In this document: positions 13,514-19,929 of the stretch, one piece after another
Position numbering within the stretch: the stretch's first letter is position 1
Layout: every line of letters starts with the position of its first letter
Assembly (NCBI GenBank): GCA_050633245.1
Contig: JBOEGD010000001.1
Location: 64,001-128,000 of the forward strand
Length of the DNA stretch: 64,000 bases
Source: Calditrichia bacterium
GTDB taxonomy: Bacteria; Calditrichota; Calditrichia; RBG-13-44-9; J075
Reading direction: 5' to 3'
Position numbers and translations under genes: made by a program
The notes under the pieces: generated by a model
Database searches by the model: none
What the model was told of the DNA's origin: nothing
What the model saw: only the letters and a program-made list of their open reading frames with translations

Positions 13514-16330
13514 ATGTCTTACCAGAAAAGACATTCACAGTTTTTCAGGATCATTTTTGCTACCGTTGTGGCAATTTTACTGATCGTTGTTATCCGCTCG
13601 CTTTATTTTAAGGCTAGCACACCGGATGATGAAAACCTGTTTCGCACCACTCCCGGAAGTGTTTTGGTTACTGAGCCAATCACTGGACGACCTGCCCCTG
13701 ATGATTCAGAAGATCCGGACGAATCGGTTTCCATTGAAACAATGATTTTGCCCGGAGAGGTCATTCGCTCTGTCGACGGTGAACTTTTTCGACAGCTATC
13801 AACTCTTGAAGCTTATTTGACCGGCCTGGACAGCCTGGACGAATTGAACTTTGAGGTGTTCGATCCCAGAGATGCCTCAACTCGCAATGTATTAATATAC
13901 TACGGGGATCTTCCGGCAAATGGTTTTCGCGGTCTTTCGTCGAGTGTGTATGTTATTACTGTGTTCGAGGATGGTGCTTCCGATCGTGCCGGGCTGCGTG
14001 TTGGCGACTTGATTGTTAGCATAAATGAACAGTTCTTCAAGAATATGCACGATGCAGATCGGATTCTTAAGGAAGCCCGTTCAGACAAAAAAATTGAATA
14101 TCAGGTTATACGTGGTAATGAAGACATTACCTTTGATATTGTTCTTGCTACGGTTGGCCTGCACCTTCCGGTTTTACTCTTCTTTTTCTGCGGTATGTTT
14201 ATGATTTTGACCGGGGCTTTTATAGGTCTTGCGCGCCCCCAATTTCGGGCAGCTCGTTACCTGGGGGTCGGATTTGTCATAACCGGCTTTTTTATCGCAT
14301 TTTTGGAAGCGACCAGAACTATAAAAGATGAGTTTATTGAGGTTCGGGCTTTTGTCCTTGTCGCTACCATTTTATTTAGCTTGCCATTATGGCTTCACAT
14401 TGCACATTACTTTCCGTTAAAGCATCAAGCCATGCTCGATCGCCGTTGGATTCGGACGACCGGCTATGTTATTGCAGCGGTTGGAGTTCTTGCCATATTG
14501 ATCATAGATGAAGCTTTCTTTGGCTTCTTTTTGTTGGTATTGATTCTCTACAATGCCATTGTTCAGTTTATGTATAGAAAAAAAGCTTCGCCGGAATACA
14601 CTGAAATTTCCAAAGTGCTCAAGCGTTTTAATATTTTAGCTGTCTCTGGTATTGCCCTTACCCTGGGTTTTATTGTTTATACGCATTGGGGAACATTTGA
14701 TATTGGTGGAAATAAGTTCGGGTATATCGGAATTCCTTTGCTGCTTTATCCTCTATCTACCTTATTTGTTATTGGTCGCTATAATCTTATCGATCTGGAC
14801 CTTCGCGTTAAGAGAAACATCCAGTACAGTGCCTTTTCTACAATGTTAGGCGTTCTTGCAGTCCTTGCTTTGGGATGGATGCTGATGAATCTTCCACAAA
14901 TGGAGTTGCCCTTGCCCAATATCCAGTTTCAGGGCAGTTTTATTGAGATAAGCGATGAGCCCATGCTTGGGAAAACCCGTCAAACTATGGAAAAAGGCGT
15001 TTTGATGTTTCTGGCAATTTTGTTGAGTTTTCTAATTGTTAGAGCACGTCGTAAGGGGCAGGCTTTTATCGATAAGAAGTTTTTCCGTGGAAGTTATGAT
15101 TACAGATTGGCATCCCGTGAGCTTGCTGAAGTAATGTCTAGTGAATTGAACATGAAGGGCCTGGCGGAGGGCATTGTTCAGAAGCTGACTCAATTGATGA
15201 AAGTGAAGCAAGCCGGAATACTCTTTTACCGCAATGAATCAGAATGTAGTGCCTCCGAGTCCGCTGGTTTGACTGCGGATCGTTGGCAGTCTTTTGTTAG
15301 TGGAATACAAAACTCTTTTACTGACGTGTTGAAAAGTGATGTCGAAGAACTGCATTTCAGTGTTGAATACTTACCTAGTTCTCTGCGAGAGCACTTCTCA
15401 GAACATGGTTTTCGGCATATTATCGCGATCCGTTCGAAGGACAAATTTGTTGGAACACTTTTGATTGGTGAAAAACTTTCTGAGTCGCCTTTCCACAATG
15501 AAGACCTGCTGTTTTTAACTTCGATTTCTAAACAGGCTTCTGTTTCTATCGAAAACTCTTTCTTGTATGATGAGCTGGCAGAACGTGAGCGTATGAAACA
15601 CGAATTGGCCATTGCCAGAAGAATTCAGCTGGCTTCCTTACCGCAACATACTCCTGTCGTTGCAGGGCTGGATATTGCCGGAATATCCGTGCCTGCTCTT
15701 GAGGTAGGCGGAGACTACTTCGATTATCTAAACGGCAATCCGGACGATTTGACGATTATCGTTGGTGACGTCAGCGGAAAAGGAACCTCTGCTGCTCTTT
15801 ATATGTCTAAGGTGCAGGGGATAATGCGATCCCTGTATGATTTTGGCTTATCCCCGCGCGATCTGTTTATCAGGGCAAATCAATTACTCATCGACAGCAT
15901 AGAAAAGCAGTCTTTTATTACAGCACTTGGCGTGTCGATTAATCCATCCACACGACAGCTTCGTCTTGCCAGAGCAGGGCATGCACCGCTATATCATTAT
16001 CAATCTAAAAGCAAGCGTGTGGAAGAGTGGTTGCCAAAGGGAATAGGTATGGGACTTGCCAATTCTGAGAAATTTGCCGTGGAGATTGAAGAGACGACAC
16101 TTAGTTTTGATGAGGGTGATATTTTCTTGCTGATTACGGACGGGATTACCGAGGCTCAAAGCGATGGTGGTGAAGAGTATGGCGAGGAGGGGCTGGAGGC
16201 CATTCTTGCTGAAGCAAACGGTGCCAGTGCAAAGAAAATTCGCGATAGTATCGTTGCTTCTGTTAATCAGTTTACCGGCGATATGCCCCAACATGACGAT
16301 CTGACGATTGTCGTCGTGAAGGCGGTTTAA
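13514..16330 (+). CDS. Membrane sensor phosphatase: PDZ domain(s), multi-TM region, GAF domain, SpoIIE/PP2C domain
   Basis: DGASDRAGLRVGDLIVSIN (PDZ); several TM helices; GAF region ending SIENSFLY; VGGDYFD, GDVSGKG, AGH, TDGITEA, DDLT. Confidence 0.9.
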   Translation: MSYQKRHSQFFRIIFATVVAILLIVVIRSLYFKASTPDDENLFRTTPGSVLVTEPITGRPAPDDSEDPDESVSIETMILPGEVIRSVDGELFRQLSTLEAYLTGLDSLDELNFEVFDPRDASTRNVLIYYGDLPANGFRGLSSSVYVITVFEDGASDRAGLRVGDLIVSINEQFFKNMHDADRILKEARSDKKIEYQVIRGNEDITFDIVLATVGLHLPVLLFFFCGMFMILTGAFIGLARPQFRAARYLGVGFVITGFFIAFLEATRTIKDEFIEVRAFVLVATILFSLPLWLHIAHYFPLKHQAMLDRRWIRTTGYVIAAVGVLAILIIDEAFFGFFLLVLILYNAIVQFMYRKKASPEYTEISKVLKRFNILAVSGIALTLGFIVYTHWGTFDIGGNKFGYIGIPLLLYPLSTLFVIGRYNLIDLDLRVKRNIQYSAFSTMLGVLAVLALGWMLMNLPQMELPLPNIQFQGSFIEISDEPMLGKTRQTMEKGVLMFLAILLSFLIVRARRKGQAFIDKKFFRGSYDYRLASRELAEVMSSELNMKGLAEGIVQKLTQLMKVKQAGILFYRNESECSASESAGLTADRWQSFVSGIQNSFTDVLKSDVEELHFSVEYLPSSLREHFSEHGFRHIIAIRSKDKFVGTLLIGEKLSESPFHNEDLLFLTSISKQASVSIENSFLYDELAERERMKHELAIARRIQLASLPQHTPVVAGLDIAGISVPALEVGGDYFDYLNGNPDDLTIIVGDVSGKGTSAALYMSKVQGIMRSLYDFGLSPRDLFIRANQLLIDSIEKQSFITALGVSINPSTRQLRLARAGHAPLYHYQSKSKRVEEWLPKGIGMGLANSEKFAVEIEETTLSFDEGDIFLLITDGITEAQSDGGEEYGEEGLEAILAEANGASAKKIRDSIVASVNQFTGDMPQHDDLTIVVVKAV

Positions 16331-16893
16331 AGAGTCTTTACTTCATTATAGCGAAAGCAGTCGGTAACGTGGTCGTTAACCATACCCACTGCCTGCATAA
16401 ACGCGTAACAAATTGTAGACCCCACGAATTTAAATCCGCGCTTTTTTAATACCTTGCTCATTTTATCAGACACGTCTGTTGTTGCCGGAACGTTGGATAA
16501 TAGTTGGTAGTTGTTCTGTATTGGTTTTCCATCAACGAACTGCCAGATATAATCTTTAAAGCTGCCAAACTCCTCTTGAACCTCCAGGAAGAGCTTGGCA
16601 TTTGTTACAGCTGCATTCACTTTAAGCTTATTTCGGACGATTCCGGGATTTGAAAGAAGTTCTTCAATCTTGTGATCGTCGTATTGGGCGATTTTAACAG
16701 GATTGAAGTTATCGAAGGCTTTCCGATAATTTTCTCTCTTCTGTAGAATTGTAATCCAGCTTAGACCGGCCTGAGCTCCTTCGAGAATCAGAAACTCAAA
16801 TAGCATCCGGTCGTCATACACCGGAACTCCCCATTCTTTGTCGTGATAGTCTTTGTAGATTTGTTTATCACCACACCACCCACATCGCTTCAT
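16327..16893 (-). CDS. tag: DNA-3-methyladenine glycosylase I
   Basis: RCGW, YHDKEWG, LEGAQAGLSW, GFKFVG, NDH..DC. Confidence 0.96.
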   Translation of the reverse strand: MKRCGWCGDKQIYKDYHDKEWGVPVYDDRMLFEFLILEGAQAGLSWITILQKRENYRKAFDNFNPVKIAQYDDHKIEELLSNPGIVRNKLKVNAAVTNAKLFLEVQEEFGSFKDYIWQFVDGKPIQNNYQLLSNVPATTDVSDKMSKVLKKRGFKFVGSTICYAFMQAVGMVNDHVTDCFRYNEVKTL

Positions 16894-16923
16894 TCGTTTT
16901 CTCCGAAATAAGTCAGGTTTGTT

Positions 16924-17382
16924 CTAGTTGTTTGTGCCACCAAACAGTTCATTAGCACGTCGCTGCATTTCCTCATCGGATAGCTCTTCCAATAGTTGAG
17001 AAAGAACCCAGATATGCCCGAATGGGTCTTTCAGCCGCCCGGAGCGATAACCATAAAACTGATCGGCAACGGGAAACAATACTTCTGCGCCGGCTTCTTC
17101 CGCAGTTTTTGCTACAGCATCTGCGTCCTCAACATTAAGATTAAGCACGACCGGCGTGCCGCCCAGAGTCTCTGGAGAAGTATTACCAAACTCAGGCATC
17201 TCATCTGCAAGCATGATAACGGAATCGCCAATGGTCAGCTCTGCATGCATAACTCGTCCCGCAGAATCAGTCATACGTCCGGCTGTTTCTTTAGCTGCAA
17301 AAGCTTTTTCGTAAAACGCAATAGCTTCGGCAGTGTTCTTAACGGTAATGTACGGATTTAATGCGGGTCTGTTCCTGGACAT
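16924..17382 (-). CDS. VOC/glyoxalase superfamily protein (PhnB-like)
   Basis: AIAFYEKAF, HAELTIG, DQFYG.RSG.LKDPFGHIW; GGGAGG RBS. Confidence 0.9.
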   Translation of the reverse strand: MSRNRPALNPYITVKNTAEAIAFYEKAFAAKETAGRMTDSAGRVMHAELTIGDSVIMLADEMPEFGNTSPETLGGTPVVLNLNVEDADAVAKTAEEAGAEVLFPVADQFYGYRSGRLKDPFGHIWVLSQLLEELSDEEMQRRANELFGGTNN

Positions 17383-17428
17383 TGTGGATCCTCCCTTTTT
17401 TCAAACATTTAATGATACATCCCAACTA

Positions 17429-18448
17429 TTAAATAGCAACTCGGAGATAGTGTGCCCAGTATCCCTGCCAGCGATTGTATTGATTAGCAATTAGTGAGAT
17501 ACGTTTGGGCAGACTGTCTCCGTAAAAATGTGTTGCTGCTGTTATAAGTCCTCTATCGGTTATGGGGGCGCGTTCCATTCGGCCGAGGCCCTGCAACAGA
17601 ATAAAGCTGGCTGCCCAGGTATCAAGGCCGTCGAGGCGCTGCAGCCAATCGCTTACATCGTCATAAGGTGCCTTAGTCAAAAACTCATCATCTATTTCGT
17701 GAAATGCGCGTGCTGCTGCAAGGAGTTGATTTGCCGCCCCATCATTAAATAAAAATGACGTGAGCTCTTTTGCCGATGTATAGGCCAGGGCGTCTGCTTC
17801 TGGGAAGGCGTAATATCGACGATTTTCCATATGAATTTGTCGACCAAAATGTCTCATAAGCCTGCGTTTTATCAGGCGAGCTTCAGCAACGCTGGTGTTA
17901 CCGGCAAGCAGCGCCCAGCAGGCACTCTCGAATGGCGTTAGGAACTTAACCTGATGAAAGCCATACAGCCGTTGGATAATCGGCTGAAAGTGAGGATCGC
18001 TATAGCCAATGCGATAAAAGGAGTTGAGATCATCCGTAAGGCTAAGAAAAAAGCGAATTCTATCTAGTGCCAGATGCCGTGTATTCTGAGAGATTGCTTT
18101 TTCTGAGAACAGCGTATACGATAAGAGCGGAGAATCCACCGTACCGGCTGAGGATACTTGAAAGAGAATAGCCTGATTATTTATGGAAATTGCTTTTAAC
18201 AGCGCTTTTCTTTCGGCGGACGTTTCCGAAAGTGCCAAACCGAGATAGGCCATAGATTGCTTAATATCGAATGGGGGAGTGGGGTAAAGGTTGCCGGTTT
18301 GTGAAAACAAAGGCTGAAGCGAGGTATGAAGCGAATCGCCATCGGCTGTTTGGTTGCCGACAGATGTGTTTACCTCGTTGTTTACGGCAGCAGCCCGTGC
18401 TGAGACAAGATTCAAGGTGGTCTGCTCATTCACAGAGCGTGTGCCCAT
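17429..18448 (-). CDS. alkA: AlkA-like DNA-3-methyladenine glycosylase (HhH-GPD), divergent
   Basis: PPFD, PFESACWALL, YAFP, HhH-like LDGLDTWAA..LLQGLGR, PITDRGL (catalytic Asp position), WQGY. Confidence 0.8.
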   Translation of the reverse strand: MGTRSVNEQTTLNLVSARAAAVNNEVNTSVGNQTADGDSLHTSLQPLFSQTGNLYPTPPFDIKQSMAYLGLALSETSAERKALLKAISINNQAILFQVSSAGTVDSPLLSYTLFSEKAISQNTRHLALDRIRFFLSLTDDLNSFYRIGYSDPHFQPIIQRLYGFHQVKFLTPFESACWALLAGNTSVAEARLIKRRLMRHFGRQIHMENRRYYAFPEADALAYTSAKELTSFLFNDGAANQLLAAARAFHEIDDEFLTKAPYDDVSDWLQRLDGLDTWAASFILLQGLGRMERAPITDRGLITAATHFYGDSLPKRISLIANQYNRWQGYWAHYLRVAI

Positions 18449-18912
18449 CAGCTAATCTCCCGAATAACCTGTATAACCTTTCCGAGAACGGTAAAACCCG
18501 GTGTCTCGGGATCGATAATAAGAATGCGATCGGGTTCGTCCGTGCTTTCAAGGCGTATTCTGTTGTGGCTGTTTGAGTAGCGGCGTATCAGTACTTTCTC
18601 TCCCAACGTAACTGCAACAACATCACCATCAACGATATGCTCTCGCGATGCAATAACAGCATTGTCGCCTTTACAGAGCCCGGCGCCTTTCATGCTATTG
18701 TCTGAAACCAGCATGCTAAAACGCTTAAGCGACTCCAGACGATTGACGATATGTTTCGCCAAATCACCGGGAGTTCCATCCGTCTGTTCCATTAAAAATT
18801 CCACCCGAGGCAGCTGCAGAAATTCTTCATTCTGCACATCTGCCTGTTTTGGTGTCATTTTTTTCTTAGTGACCGGCGTTCCGGCCTTTGCTGAACGTTT
18901 AGTTAACCACAT
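18448..18912 (-). CDS. LexA/UmuD C-terminal (peptidase S24) domain-only protein, predicted inactive
   Basis: VSDNSM.GAGL..GD, GDVVAV, VLIRRY (K to R), VLGKVIQVIR; no HTH and no Ala-Gly cleavage site. Confidence 0.75.
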   Translation of the reverse strand: MWLTKRSAKAGTPVTKKKMTPKQADVQNEEFLQLPRVEFLMEQTDGTPGDLAKHIVNRLESLKRFSMLVSDNSMKGAGLCKGDNAVIASREHIVDGDVVAVTLGEKVLIRRYSNSHNRIRLESTDEPDRILIIDPETPGFTVLGKVIQVIREIS

Positions 18913-19522
18913 TGCGAATCAATCCAACCACTTTGCCCTGAATATTCCAGTCGCCCTGCGGACGAATGTCTTCATAAGCCGGGTTTTCAGCTTTCAGATA
19001 GCGCTGGCCACCATCGTCAATTAGCCGTTTTACAGTAACTTCACCGTCAATTAATGCCACAACAATTTGGTTGGCTTCAGAAACGTTGGCAGACTTTACA
19101 ATGACCAAATCGCCATCCATAATACCGGCGTTGATCATAGAATCTCCACGAACGCGCAGCGTAAAGTAGTTACCTTCTGTCTTAATCAGATTACGCGGAA
19201 TACTTACATATTCATCAATGTTTTGTTCTGCAAGAATCGGGTGACCGGCAGACACCTGACCGATTAACGGCAGATTAATAATACTGCCCGGAGGTGGTGC
19301 CTGGTAGCGTTTATCTACAATGCGCAGACTGCGTGCCGTGGTTCCAGTCTTTTCGAGATAACCTTTGCGAATGAGCGCTTCAAGATGGCGAACAACACCA
19401 TGCTTGGATGCGATACCAAAATTATCTGCTATTTCCTGATAGCTCGGTGGATAGCCATACTCTGAAAGATATTCGGAAATAAATTTCAGCACTTCCTCCT
19501 GCCGATTGGTCAGGCCCTTCAT
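18899..19522 (-). CDS. lexA: SOS repressor LexA
   Basis: LTNRQ..GYPPSYQEIA winged HTH; VSAG cleavage site; GDSM (Ser) and TVKR (Lys); AAAGGA RBS; start moved to ATG 19522. Confidence 0.97.
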   Translation of the reverse strand: MKGLTNRQEEVLKFISEYLSEYGYPPSYQEIADNFGIASKHGVVRHLEALIRKGYLEKTGTTARSLRIVDKRYQAPPPGSIINLPLIGQVSAGHPILAEQNIDEYVSIPRNLIKTEGNYFTLRVRGDSMINAGIMDGDLVIVKSANVSEANQIVVALIDGEVTVKRLIDDGGQRYLKAENPAYEDIRPQGDWNIQGKVVGLIRNVVN

Positions 19523-19601
19523 ATGTTGTGTCCTTTCGAATATTGCACATAGTGTATCGCCAGGCTGATAAAGTCCGTTGTTGGCAGCGGGCGTATACAT
19601 A

Positions 19602-19641
19602 AGTTCACTTTAACAATACAACGTAAAATAGGTATTGTCAA
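19602..19641 (-). promoter_or_regulatory. sigma70 promoter of lexA with an overlapping candidate LexA operator
   Basis: Minus strand TTGACA(19641-19636)-17 nt-TATTGT(19618-19613); imperfect palindrome TGTTA-AAGT-GAACT at 19615-19602. Confidence 0.6.
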
Positions 19642-19776: not shown

Positions 19777-19832
19777 AGAAGCGAGATGCAAGAAGCGAGA
19801 TGCAAGAAGCGAGATGCAAGAAGCAAGATGCA
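19777..19832 (+). repeat. Tandem 14-mer (2x7) repeat AGAAGCGAGATGCA x4
   Basis: Three exact copies plus AGAAGCAAGATGCA. Confidence 0.95.
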
Positions 19833-19859
19833 AGAGGTAAGAACCCGGAACCATTATTT

Positions 19860-19929
19860 TTCACTGTTCACTTTTCACTGTTCACTGTTCACTGTCATTC
19901 ATAATTCATCAATAATAACTCATCAATCA
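19860..19929 (+). repeat. Heptamer tandem repeats (TTCACTG x5, then degenerate TCATTCA/TAATTCA-type units)
   Basis: Read directly; one TTCACTT variant; runs up to the ATG at 19932. Confidence 0.85.

Follow-up and report, generated by a model that had tools for sequence, protein, structure and literature searches.

A head-less, catalytically dead LexA paralog conserved beside lexA in the Calditrichota

We analysed a 64,000-nt stretch of DNA from a Calditrichia bacterium (GenBank assembly GCA_050633245.1, contig JBOEGD010000001.1, positions 64,001 to 128,000 of the forward strand; hereafter, the window), in which an open reading frame (ORF) directly downstream of lexA encodes a paralog of the LexA C-terminal domain that has no DNA-binding head. 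Our analysis revealed that this 154-aa paralog has lost the catalytic residues of LexA, is conserved under purifying selection in the Calditrichota and is linked to lexA across the phylum. It is an S24/LexA-family pseudo-enzyme of interest to SOS specialists. The role that we tentatively favour, at somewhat less than even confidence, is that of a non-cleavable, probably RecA*-insensitive, head-less LexA-type subunit that would pair with LexA or with itself and so modulate the SOS response.

Anatomy of the paralog

The paralog ORF (18448..18912, minus strand) and the LexA ORF (18899..19600) were both recovered in the six-frame list of the window, and all four motif comparisons between them that had been drawn in an earlier sequence-only reading of this DNA were correct. 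A Pfam scan placed the paralog in Peptidase_S24 (PF00717; residues 63-147, E value 1.1e-10, 41.6 bits against a gathering score of 23.3) as the sole Pfam family found and returned no LexA_DNA_bind match, in agreement with the earlier description of a protein without a DNA-binding head. The window LexA matched both LexA_DNA_bind and Peptidase_S24 and scored 218 bits with the LexA repressor model TIGR00498 (cut-off 111). With the same model the paralog returned 48.7 bits against a cut-off of 110.95 (E value 6.5e-13), covering profile positions 114-202 only, and it also fell below the cut-offs for UmuD (NF007621: 34.2 bits against 110, E value 2.2e-8) and HumD (NF051876: 15.8 bits against 120). 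The 6.35-Mb genome encodes no S24 domains other than those of LexA and the paralog.

An AlphaFold2 model of the paralog, built on 22 family members, displayed a C-terminal domain with a predicted local distance difference test (pLDDT) score >90 and a poorly defined region covering the first 60 residues. The top Foldseek matches of this model were LexA C-terminal domains (E value 6e-7), followed by UmuD′ (E value 2.5e-4) and lambda cI. Public annotation labels such proteins as 'S24 family peptidase' or 'hypothetical protein', and sometimes even as 'LexA', hiding the distinction between the paralog and LexA.

Loss of catalytic residues and conservation of the family

The paralog could be aligned to E. 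coli LexA (1jhf and others) without gaps using HMMER, starting with paralog residue 65 on LexA residue 111, and this alignment places S73 on the catalytic Ser119 and R110 on the catalytic Lys156. The replacement of the lysine, which had been reported from the window, proved to be a property of the whole family, as the position is occupied by Arg in 40/40 aligned orthologues from 40 genomes. For the serine, the sequence-only reading was right about the window paralog, which keeps it, but not about the family: Ser is present in only 4 of the 40 orthologues, the others having Gly (15), Arg (11), Ala (6) or His, Gln, Thr or Cys (one each), and the closest relative of the paralog (88 % identity) carries Thr. 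Retention of Ser in the window paralog is incidental. The Ala-Gly cleavage site, described earlier as gone, is indeed missing after the LP motif of the cleavage-site loop (paralog, LPRVEFLMEQ; window LexA, LPLIGQVSAG), and one orthologue of the 40 (L033) keeps it, in the form Ala-Gly-x-Pro. The loop is still LexA-like in some paralog lineages, and that of L033 is similar enough to a LexA cleavage site to demonstrate descent from LexA. By comparison, all 24 Calditrichota LexA sequences examined keep the Ala-Gly site as well as Ser and Lys. As Lys has become Arg in 40/40 orthologues and Ser has been lost from 36/40, the family can be classed on its residues as a pseudo-peptidase, and the description of the protein as 'dead' holds.

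The family profile returned a match at E value <= 1e-22 in 71 of 86 Calditrichota genomes, and the protein was detected in 35 of 41 related genomes. An exhaustive profile search against 1.8 billion representatives recovered 14 clusters at E value <= 1e-30, beyond which about a dozen further clusters of head-less proteins of ~140-150 aa preceded ordinary LexA proteins in the ranking; source names for ten clusters were Calditrichia or generic labels only, and a 98-member cluster in the ESM Atlas had Calditrichota as its commonest origin. The ratio of non-synonymous to synonymous substitution rates (dN/dS) was 0.025-0.22 for the paralog in six congeneric pairs and 0-0.09 for lexA in the five pairs with usable dS. 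The paralog evolves faster than lexA, with identities between relatives of 37-53 % and 60-74 %, respectively. Hence, on the two points that had been put forward for checking, conservation and dN/dS, the ORF is neither unconserved nor decaying, and these ratios indicate purifying selection on the family. Its specific invariants include F31 (36/37) and P35 (37/37) in a conserved N-terminal arm (motif F-x-x-hydrophobic-P), G104, R110 and a C-terminal strand of the form L-G-x-V-x-x-[VI]-[IV]-R-E.

Three metagenomic proteins (P0026, P0034 and P0035) are likewise head-less S24 proteins, of ~120-135 aa, with Arg at the Lys position; P0026 and P0034 carry a TPGF motif and retain Ser. Scans of named genomes gave no match for P0034 and four for P0026 (37-41 % identity; Clostridia-group and Streptomyces), which may be ordinary LexA genes.

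Linkage to lexA and the putative operator

The coupling of the paralog to lexA, proposed from the window, extends across the phylum. Both genes were called in 46 loci, and lexA precedes the paralog on the same strand in every one of them, directly in 45. The median gap is 17 nt (30 loci), and in the window the two genes overlap by 14 nt, from the paralog ATG to the lexA stop. Fifteen of the 86 genomes lacked a clear paralog: nine had no LexA match (among them a single-contig genome and one that is 96 % complete), three had a lexA cut by a contig end, two had a split or cut paralog and one had only a sub-cut-off S24 protein of 155 aa. A split copy was seen once, in a 62 %-complete assembly. None of the 86 Calditrichota genomes was found to have a complete lexA and downstream DNA yet no paralog. 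In the exceptional locus (L052:3940-5515, genome G071), two small, overlapping ORFs separate lexA from the paralog; a like pair lies downstream of the operon in L053:4853-6662, and these ORFs may resemble the pair TcmP and Gp37-Gp68 (DUF5131).

In the window, the genes form a compact row on the minus strand (16327-19641), listed here in the direction of transcription:

19613..19641, minus strand: sigma-70-like promoter of the lexA operon (TTGACA, 17 nt, TATTGT; 10/12, the best minus-strand match of the region)
19593..19608, minus strand: putative LexA operator, GTGAAC-N4-GTATAC, directly 3′ of the -10 hexamer
18899..19522, minus strand: lexA, coding for 207 aa if started at the Met to which all orthologues align (frame open as far as 19600)
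18448..18912, minus strand: the paralog, a head-less, catalytically dead S24 protein (LexA C-terminal domain), 154 aa
17429..18448, minus strand: HhH-GPD-like (Ogg/AlkA-like) gene, 339 aa, with all family matches below cut-offs
16924..17382, minus strand: glyoxalase/VOC-family gene (Pfam Glyoxalase, E value 5.6e-13)
16327..16893, minus strand: tag, 3-methyladenine DNA glycosylase I (Pfam Adenine_glyco, E value 2.9e-86)

Inspection by eye of related lexA loci revealed a TTGACA-N17-TAnAAT promoter immediately 5′ of a GTGAAC box, and the pattern GTGAAC-N4-GT..AC occupies the same place upstream of lexA in 16/19 loci, with a GTGTAC variant in one more. The strict form, GTGAAC-N4-GTWYAC, occurs only twice in the 6.35-Mb genome. 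We use the term putative LexA operator for the window box, which LexA would be expected to bind, and the arrangement of promoter, operator and genes suggests that lexA and the paralog are co-transcribed and induced in the SOS response.

Several further features of these lexA regions were recorded. Two short tandem arrays are located just upstream of the lexA promoter (window 19780-19900, minus-strand reading). In one, a 7-8-nt unit that includes GTGAA(C/A), the word of the strong half of the LexA box, is repeated about five times; the other consists of four to five copies of an 11-nt unit. The second exact match to the strict pattern (C1:52750-52765, within L031, G000:C1:51250-54265) is upstream of two small ORFs, and the next downstream ORF, partial at the locus end, is presumably integrase-like; this box may mark an SOS-controlled mobile element. 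Finally, the LexA proteins of two genomes (L021:1954-2823 and L022:1954-2823; G012 and G008) are 289 aa in length, and BLASTP detected the N-terminal DNA-binding region twice, the additional, weaker copy preceding the usual one, which suggests a duplicated winged-helix head.

Predicted pairing with LexA

A complex of LexA residues 76-207 and paralog residues 25-154 was modelled alongside three controls. The complex returned a score of 0.65, compared with 0.00 for the best of the three controls; among reference pairs, 58 of 80 solved complexes and 2 of 110 mismatched pairs attained the mark used for such scores. The runs agreed in at least 74 % of contacts, with a partner pLDDT of at least 70. 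The predicted interface joins LexA 198-207 to paralog 145-154 and also involves paralog residues 77-80, 83, 85 and 96-98, that is, antiparallel C-terminal strands and the adjacent loops, as in the LexA dimer.

The 19 interface positions are less variable among orthologues than the other 68 positions of the C-terminal domain (1.29 versus 1.87 bits, permutation p 0.012) and match the LexA consensus more often (11/19 versus 13/68, Fisher p 0.0025). Since the interface is both conserved and LexA-like, the dimer surface appears to be the part of LexA that was kept.

Proposed contact with RecA*

The sequence-only reading had also proposed that the paralog acts as a decoy for RecA*. In the sections of a cryo-EM study that describe this contact (PMC9926225), the LexA acidic patch (D150, D151 and E152 in E. 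coli) pairs with RecA K232/R243/K245, charge reversal at the patch positions impairs RecA-mediated cleavage, and RecA filaments bind head-less, non-cleavable LexA in stoichiometric amounts and become longer, as they do with DinI. In the paralog family the patch is replaced by G-x-[K/R], with Lys or Arg at the E152 position in 36/40 orthologues, and the RecA of the window genome retains F203 and the basic patch, which weakens the decoy proposal. In its favour, paralog residues 65, 67 and 107, equivalent to E. coli F111, L113 and V153 in the pocket for RecA F203, are still hydrophobic, so RecA* binding is less likely but may still occur. A search for DinI (PF06183) gave no match anywhere in the genome; RecX is present.

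Downstream genes and the DUF6504-polymerase cassette

The paralog is constant, and the genes that follow it change from locus to locus. In the window's own family, the HhH-GPD-like gene is 3′ of the paralog in 9/14 loci, often with the VOC and tag genes, and among the loci examined it was found in this family only. Its product returned sub-cut-off matches throughout (Pfam HhH-GPD, E value 0.0067; NCBIfam ogg, 1.7e-11, and AlkA, 2.6e-5, the latter two well short of their thresholds) and represents a divergent family of glycosylase-like proteins confined to these lexA operons. In the window, its ATG shares one base with the paralog TGA, and the protein has ~46 additional N-terminal residues relative to its orthologues. 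The glyoxalase/VOC gene recurs 3′ of the paralog in L007, L015 and L059 (a wider stretch of the L015 genome). The tag gene is found 3′ of the paralog in many related loci, at a varying position, and is the probable end of the operon in the window.

Two sister families display the order lexA, paralog, [tag], DUF6504 and a ~100-aa protein in 13 of 17 loci, two of the 17 having a Y-family polymerase inside the stretch. In more distant families, 13/20 loci have lexA, paralog, DUF6504, [small protein] and a Y-family polymerase, confirmed by its IMS, IMS_C and IMS_HHH domains. Judging from gene context, DUF6504 is probably a standalone ImuB-C; the combination of a standalone ImuB-C with DinB/PolY and lexA is described as a putative mutasome in parts of two earlier analyses (PMC3765255; PMC6511836). 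A protein of ~100-120 aa almost always follows DUF6504 in the lexA operons (e.g. L016:3059-3361, L033:4440-4736 and L034:4902-5267); it returned no Pfam match and is possibly a component of the ImuB-C/Y-polymerase module that has yet to be described.

In the window genome, the DUF6504-polymerase pair is positioned ~144 kb from the paralog on the same contig (L004, G000:C1:225018-228458). The DUF6504 gene (91 aa; 26.2 bits against a cut-off of 24.2) and the gene for a Pol IV-like Y-family polymerase (431 aa) are on the same strand, and DUF6504 has its own TTGACA promoter followed, as judged by eye, by a perfect GTGAAC half-box. Between the two, on the opposite strand, lies a gene for a four-helix bundle (TIGR02436). 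The earlier remark that there is no umuC nearby can be extended to the whole genome, because NCBIfam assigns both of its IMS genes to Pol IV, with 363 and 316 bits for the Pol IV models and, for UmuC, 100 and 110 bits where 431 are required; no UmuC was found in the 6.35 Mb, and neither IMS gene adjoins the paralog. DUF6504 was unmatched in 11 paralog-bearing genomes, of which one is closed and three are 97-99 % complete. Five of these 11 were tested, and all keep a housekeeping-type Pol IV orthologue and lack a cassette-type polymerase, with a divergent third polymerase in two.

Proposed role and alternatives

Taken together, these data lead us to favour, with the reservation stated at the outset, a role for the paralog directed at LexA itself. 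The paralog would be made from the same LexA-repressed transcript as LexA, often with translational coupling, and would thus be SOS-inducible and held at a fixed ratio to LexA. Its dimerisation surface appears to be kept (the C-terminal strand and the AG[IL], GD and G-D-[IV] loops) and its acidic RecA*-contact patch lost, so that it could join LexA in a dimer with a single DNA-binding head, or form homodimers. As the paralog would survive RecA*-induced cleavage and LexA would not, the amount of operator-competent LexA dimer would shift during and after damage, and the paralog could set the SOS threshold or the time of shut-off. Of the companions of lexA, the paralog is the only constant one, and it is found with lexA even where the polymerase cassette lies at another place or is absent; we count both points in favour of a LexA-directed role. 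Dimerisation with LexA and an effect on repression are inferred, as are co-transcription and SOS induction.

A bolder form of this proposal, which we consider doubtful, is a two-subunit SOS switch in which expression of lexA would invariably be accompanied by that of an uncleavable, head-less, RecA*-blind subunit, giving mixed dimers and hysteresis (a timer or memory), with a possible second role, as a permanently 'activated' UmuD′-like subunit, in lineages that have the cassette. In such a switch the paralog would outlive LexA during induction and would therefore build up and tie up freshly synthesised LexA in dimers with one head.

Several observations weigh against a LexA-directed role. The proposal of a LexA heterodimer in the sequence-only reading has support at the level of the model; however, LexA C-terminal domain homodimers have been solved, so the complex score shows likeness to them and may not reflect binding, and the controls do not separate a LexA heterodimer from a paralog homodimer. 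The enrichment at the interface is not independent evidence, because the interface was defined by the model itself, and its residues (AG[IL], GD, V..IR) are conserved across S24 proteins generally. No clean co-variation between the LexA and paralog tails was seen in 46 pairs, the pattern of Asp/Glu against Gln/Thr/Ser tracking phylogeny. The conserved arm (F31 and P35) is outside the predicted interface, and pairing with LexA explains neither the arm nor the invariant Arg110; none of the models considered here accounts for either. Finally, DUF6504, the small protein and the Y-family polymerase continue the operon in most families outside the window's own, as would suit a UmuD-like protein.

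In E. coli, UmuD′2 binds UmuC and UmuD2 binds DinB. By analogy, the paralog may be a constitutively 'processed', non-cleavable UmuD-like accessory whose dimer binds DUF6504 and/or the linked Y-family polymerase, or Pol IV generally. We regard this, the main rival reading, as unlikely, although the sequence-only reading dismissed a UmuD role too quickly: the 13/20 distant-family loci with DUF6504, small protein and polymerase in one operon and the 13/17 sister-family loci with DUF6504 and small protein 3′ of the paralog both suit it, as do the promoter and half-box of the separate pair in the window genome and the published description, as far as those passages go, of ImuB-C, DinB/PolY and lexA as a putative mutasome (PMC3765255; PMC6511836). 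The arm motif F-x-x-hydrophobic-P, which pairing with LexA leaves unexplained, can be added to these. However, on splitting of the cassette the paralog stays with lexA, as in the window genome; in most sister-family loci no polymerase was present within the stretch. The 11 paralog-bearing genomes without a DUF6504 match, the five tested ones without a cassette-type polymerase and the lack of UmuC also argue against such an accessory, and both profile and fold comparisons favour LexA (TIGR00498 over NF007621, and the LexA C-terminal domain ranked above UmuD′). We consider it improbable that the paralog is a ligand of the RecA* filament, whether as a non-cleavable pseudo-substrate in the groove, competing with LexA as a negative-feedback brake, or as a stabiliser of filaments. 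The relevant part of the cryo-EM work (PMC9926225) provides a precedent in the filament lengthening by head-less LexA, and the hydrophobic pocket for F203, the missing DinI and the LexA-like cleavage loop of some lineages (Ala-Gly-x-Pro in L033) are all consistent with it. The pocket positions, however, also belong to a core beta-strand, which makes their hydrophobicity weak evidence, and RecX is available; furthermore, the acidic patch has given way to G-x-[K/R], in a genome whose RecA keeps both F203 and its basic patch, and reversal of charge at the acidic patch of LexA impairs RecA-mediated cleavage in the same source.

Two other explanations fare worse. The paralog may be a partner or regulator of the downstream base-excision enzymes (HhH-GPD-like and Tag), its position after lexA reflecting shared SOS regulation only; the one-base stop/start overlap, the 9/14 own-family loci and the frequency of tag 3′ of the paralog suit this view, which we nevertheless hold to be very unlikely, given that the HhH-GPD-like gene is limited to one family among the loci examined, that tag varies in position and that the paralog is constant while all genes downstream of it change. 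A functionless relic of a tandem lexA duplication would be expected to lose the head, the cleavage site and the catalytic dyad and to evolve faster than lexA, as the paralog has done, yet the open frame is retained phylum-wide, dN/dS is no higher than 0.22, family-specific invariants such as Arg110 (40/40) persist, and the single split copy is in a 62 %-complete assembly; this explanation is close to refuted.

Comparison with known systems

LexA and RecA* form the textbook damage switch of bacteria, and the known protein modulators of SOS (DinI, RecX, UmuD and phage anti-repressors) are, to our knowledge, either unrelated to LexA or active peptidases. A head-less dead paralog tied to lexA throughout a phylum would represent a new regulatory layer, a pseudo-enzyme derived from the repressor itself. 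Searches of open-access full text yielded no account of an inactive LexA paralog without a head encoded in a lexA operon, in keeping with the earlier statement that no equivalent was known, although supplementary tables of gene neighbours might list one.

With the LexA C-terminal domain, the paralog shares the fold, the GD and C-terminal strand motifs, a location beside lexA, what is left of the strand with the cleavage site (hydrophobic-P-[LR]-x-[GE]) and the predicted dimer mode via C-terminal strands. It differs from it in lacking the winged helix-turn-helix head, the Ala-Gly site, the Ser-Lys dyad and the acidic RecA* patch, and in carrying a three-residue insertion (TPGF) and, within its final strand, a Gln, Thr or Ser peculiar to the family. 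It is therefore distinct from LexA repressors (TIGR00498), being below their cut-off and without an N-terminal winged-helix domain, and from the active S24 autopeptidases (LexA, UmuD and cI), as it has neither a Ser-Lys dyad nor an Ala-Gly or Cys-Gly scissile bond.

The lexA-imuB-C-polY operons (GeoPolY-like; Aravind et al. 2013, Timinskas and Venclovas 2019) resemble those of most Calditrichota families in combining lexA, a small beta-rich protein (DUF6504) and an active Y-family polymerase; the portions of these papers that deal with the operons describe no head-less S24 gene, although their supplementary tables might list such neighbours. A functional analogy is possible with DinI and with head-less LexA fragments in vitro, which are small SOS-induced or engineered modulators of the RecA* groove, as covered in part of the cryo-EM report (PMC9926225). 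DinI, however, bears no sequence relation to the paralog, and the paralog lacks an acidic groove-binding patch.

UmuD and UmuD′, the accessory proteins of Pol V (and MucA, RumA and HumD), are similar to the paralog in being head-less S24 proteins of ~140-150 aa with an N-terminal arm and SOS-regulated expression, as we infer for the paralog, which in much of the phylum also shares an operon with a Y-family polymerase. In contrast, the paralog falls below the UmuD and HumD cut-offs and, lacking the residues needed, is presumably unable to self-cleave; the polymerases are Pol IV-like, with no UmuC, and are separated from the paralog by DUF6504 and the small gene, and the paralog is always attached to lexA and not to the polymerase. 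If it does serve DUF6504 and the polymerase, it would be a missing subunit of the poorly understood ImuB-C-type mutasomes, and a UmuD-like function would be possible without self-cleavage.

For the LexA-directed role that we favour, a parallel is provided by the dominant-negative LexA variants of E. coli, which poison dimers. Mixed dimers, if they form, would make the paralog a natural dominant-negative subunit and offer a simple, testable model for the evolution of SOS thresholds and shut-off times, and a two-subunit switch would have built-in hysteresis that other bacteria reach, if at all, with unrelated factors. In both cases a LexA-type subunit would dimerise without contributing a DNA-binding head; the E. 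coli variants are laboratory mutants, whereas the Calditrichota paralog would be natural, separately encoded and conserved.

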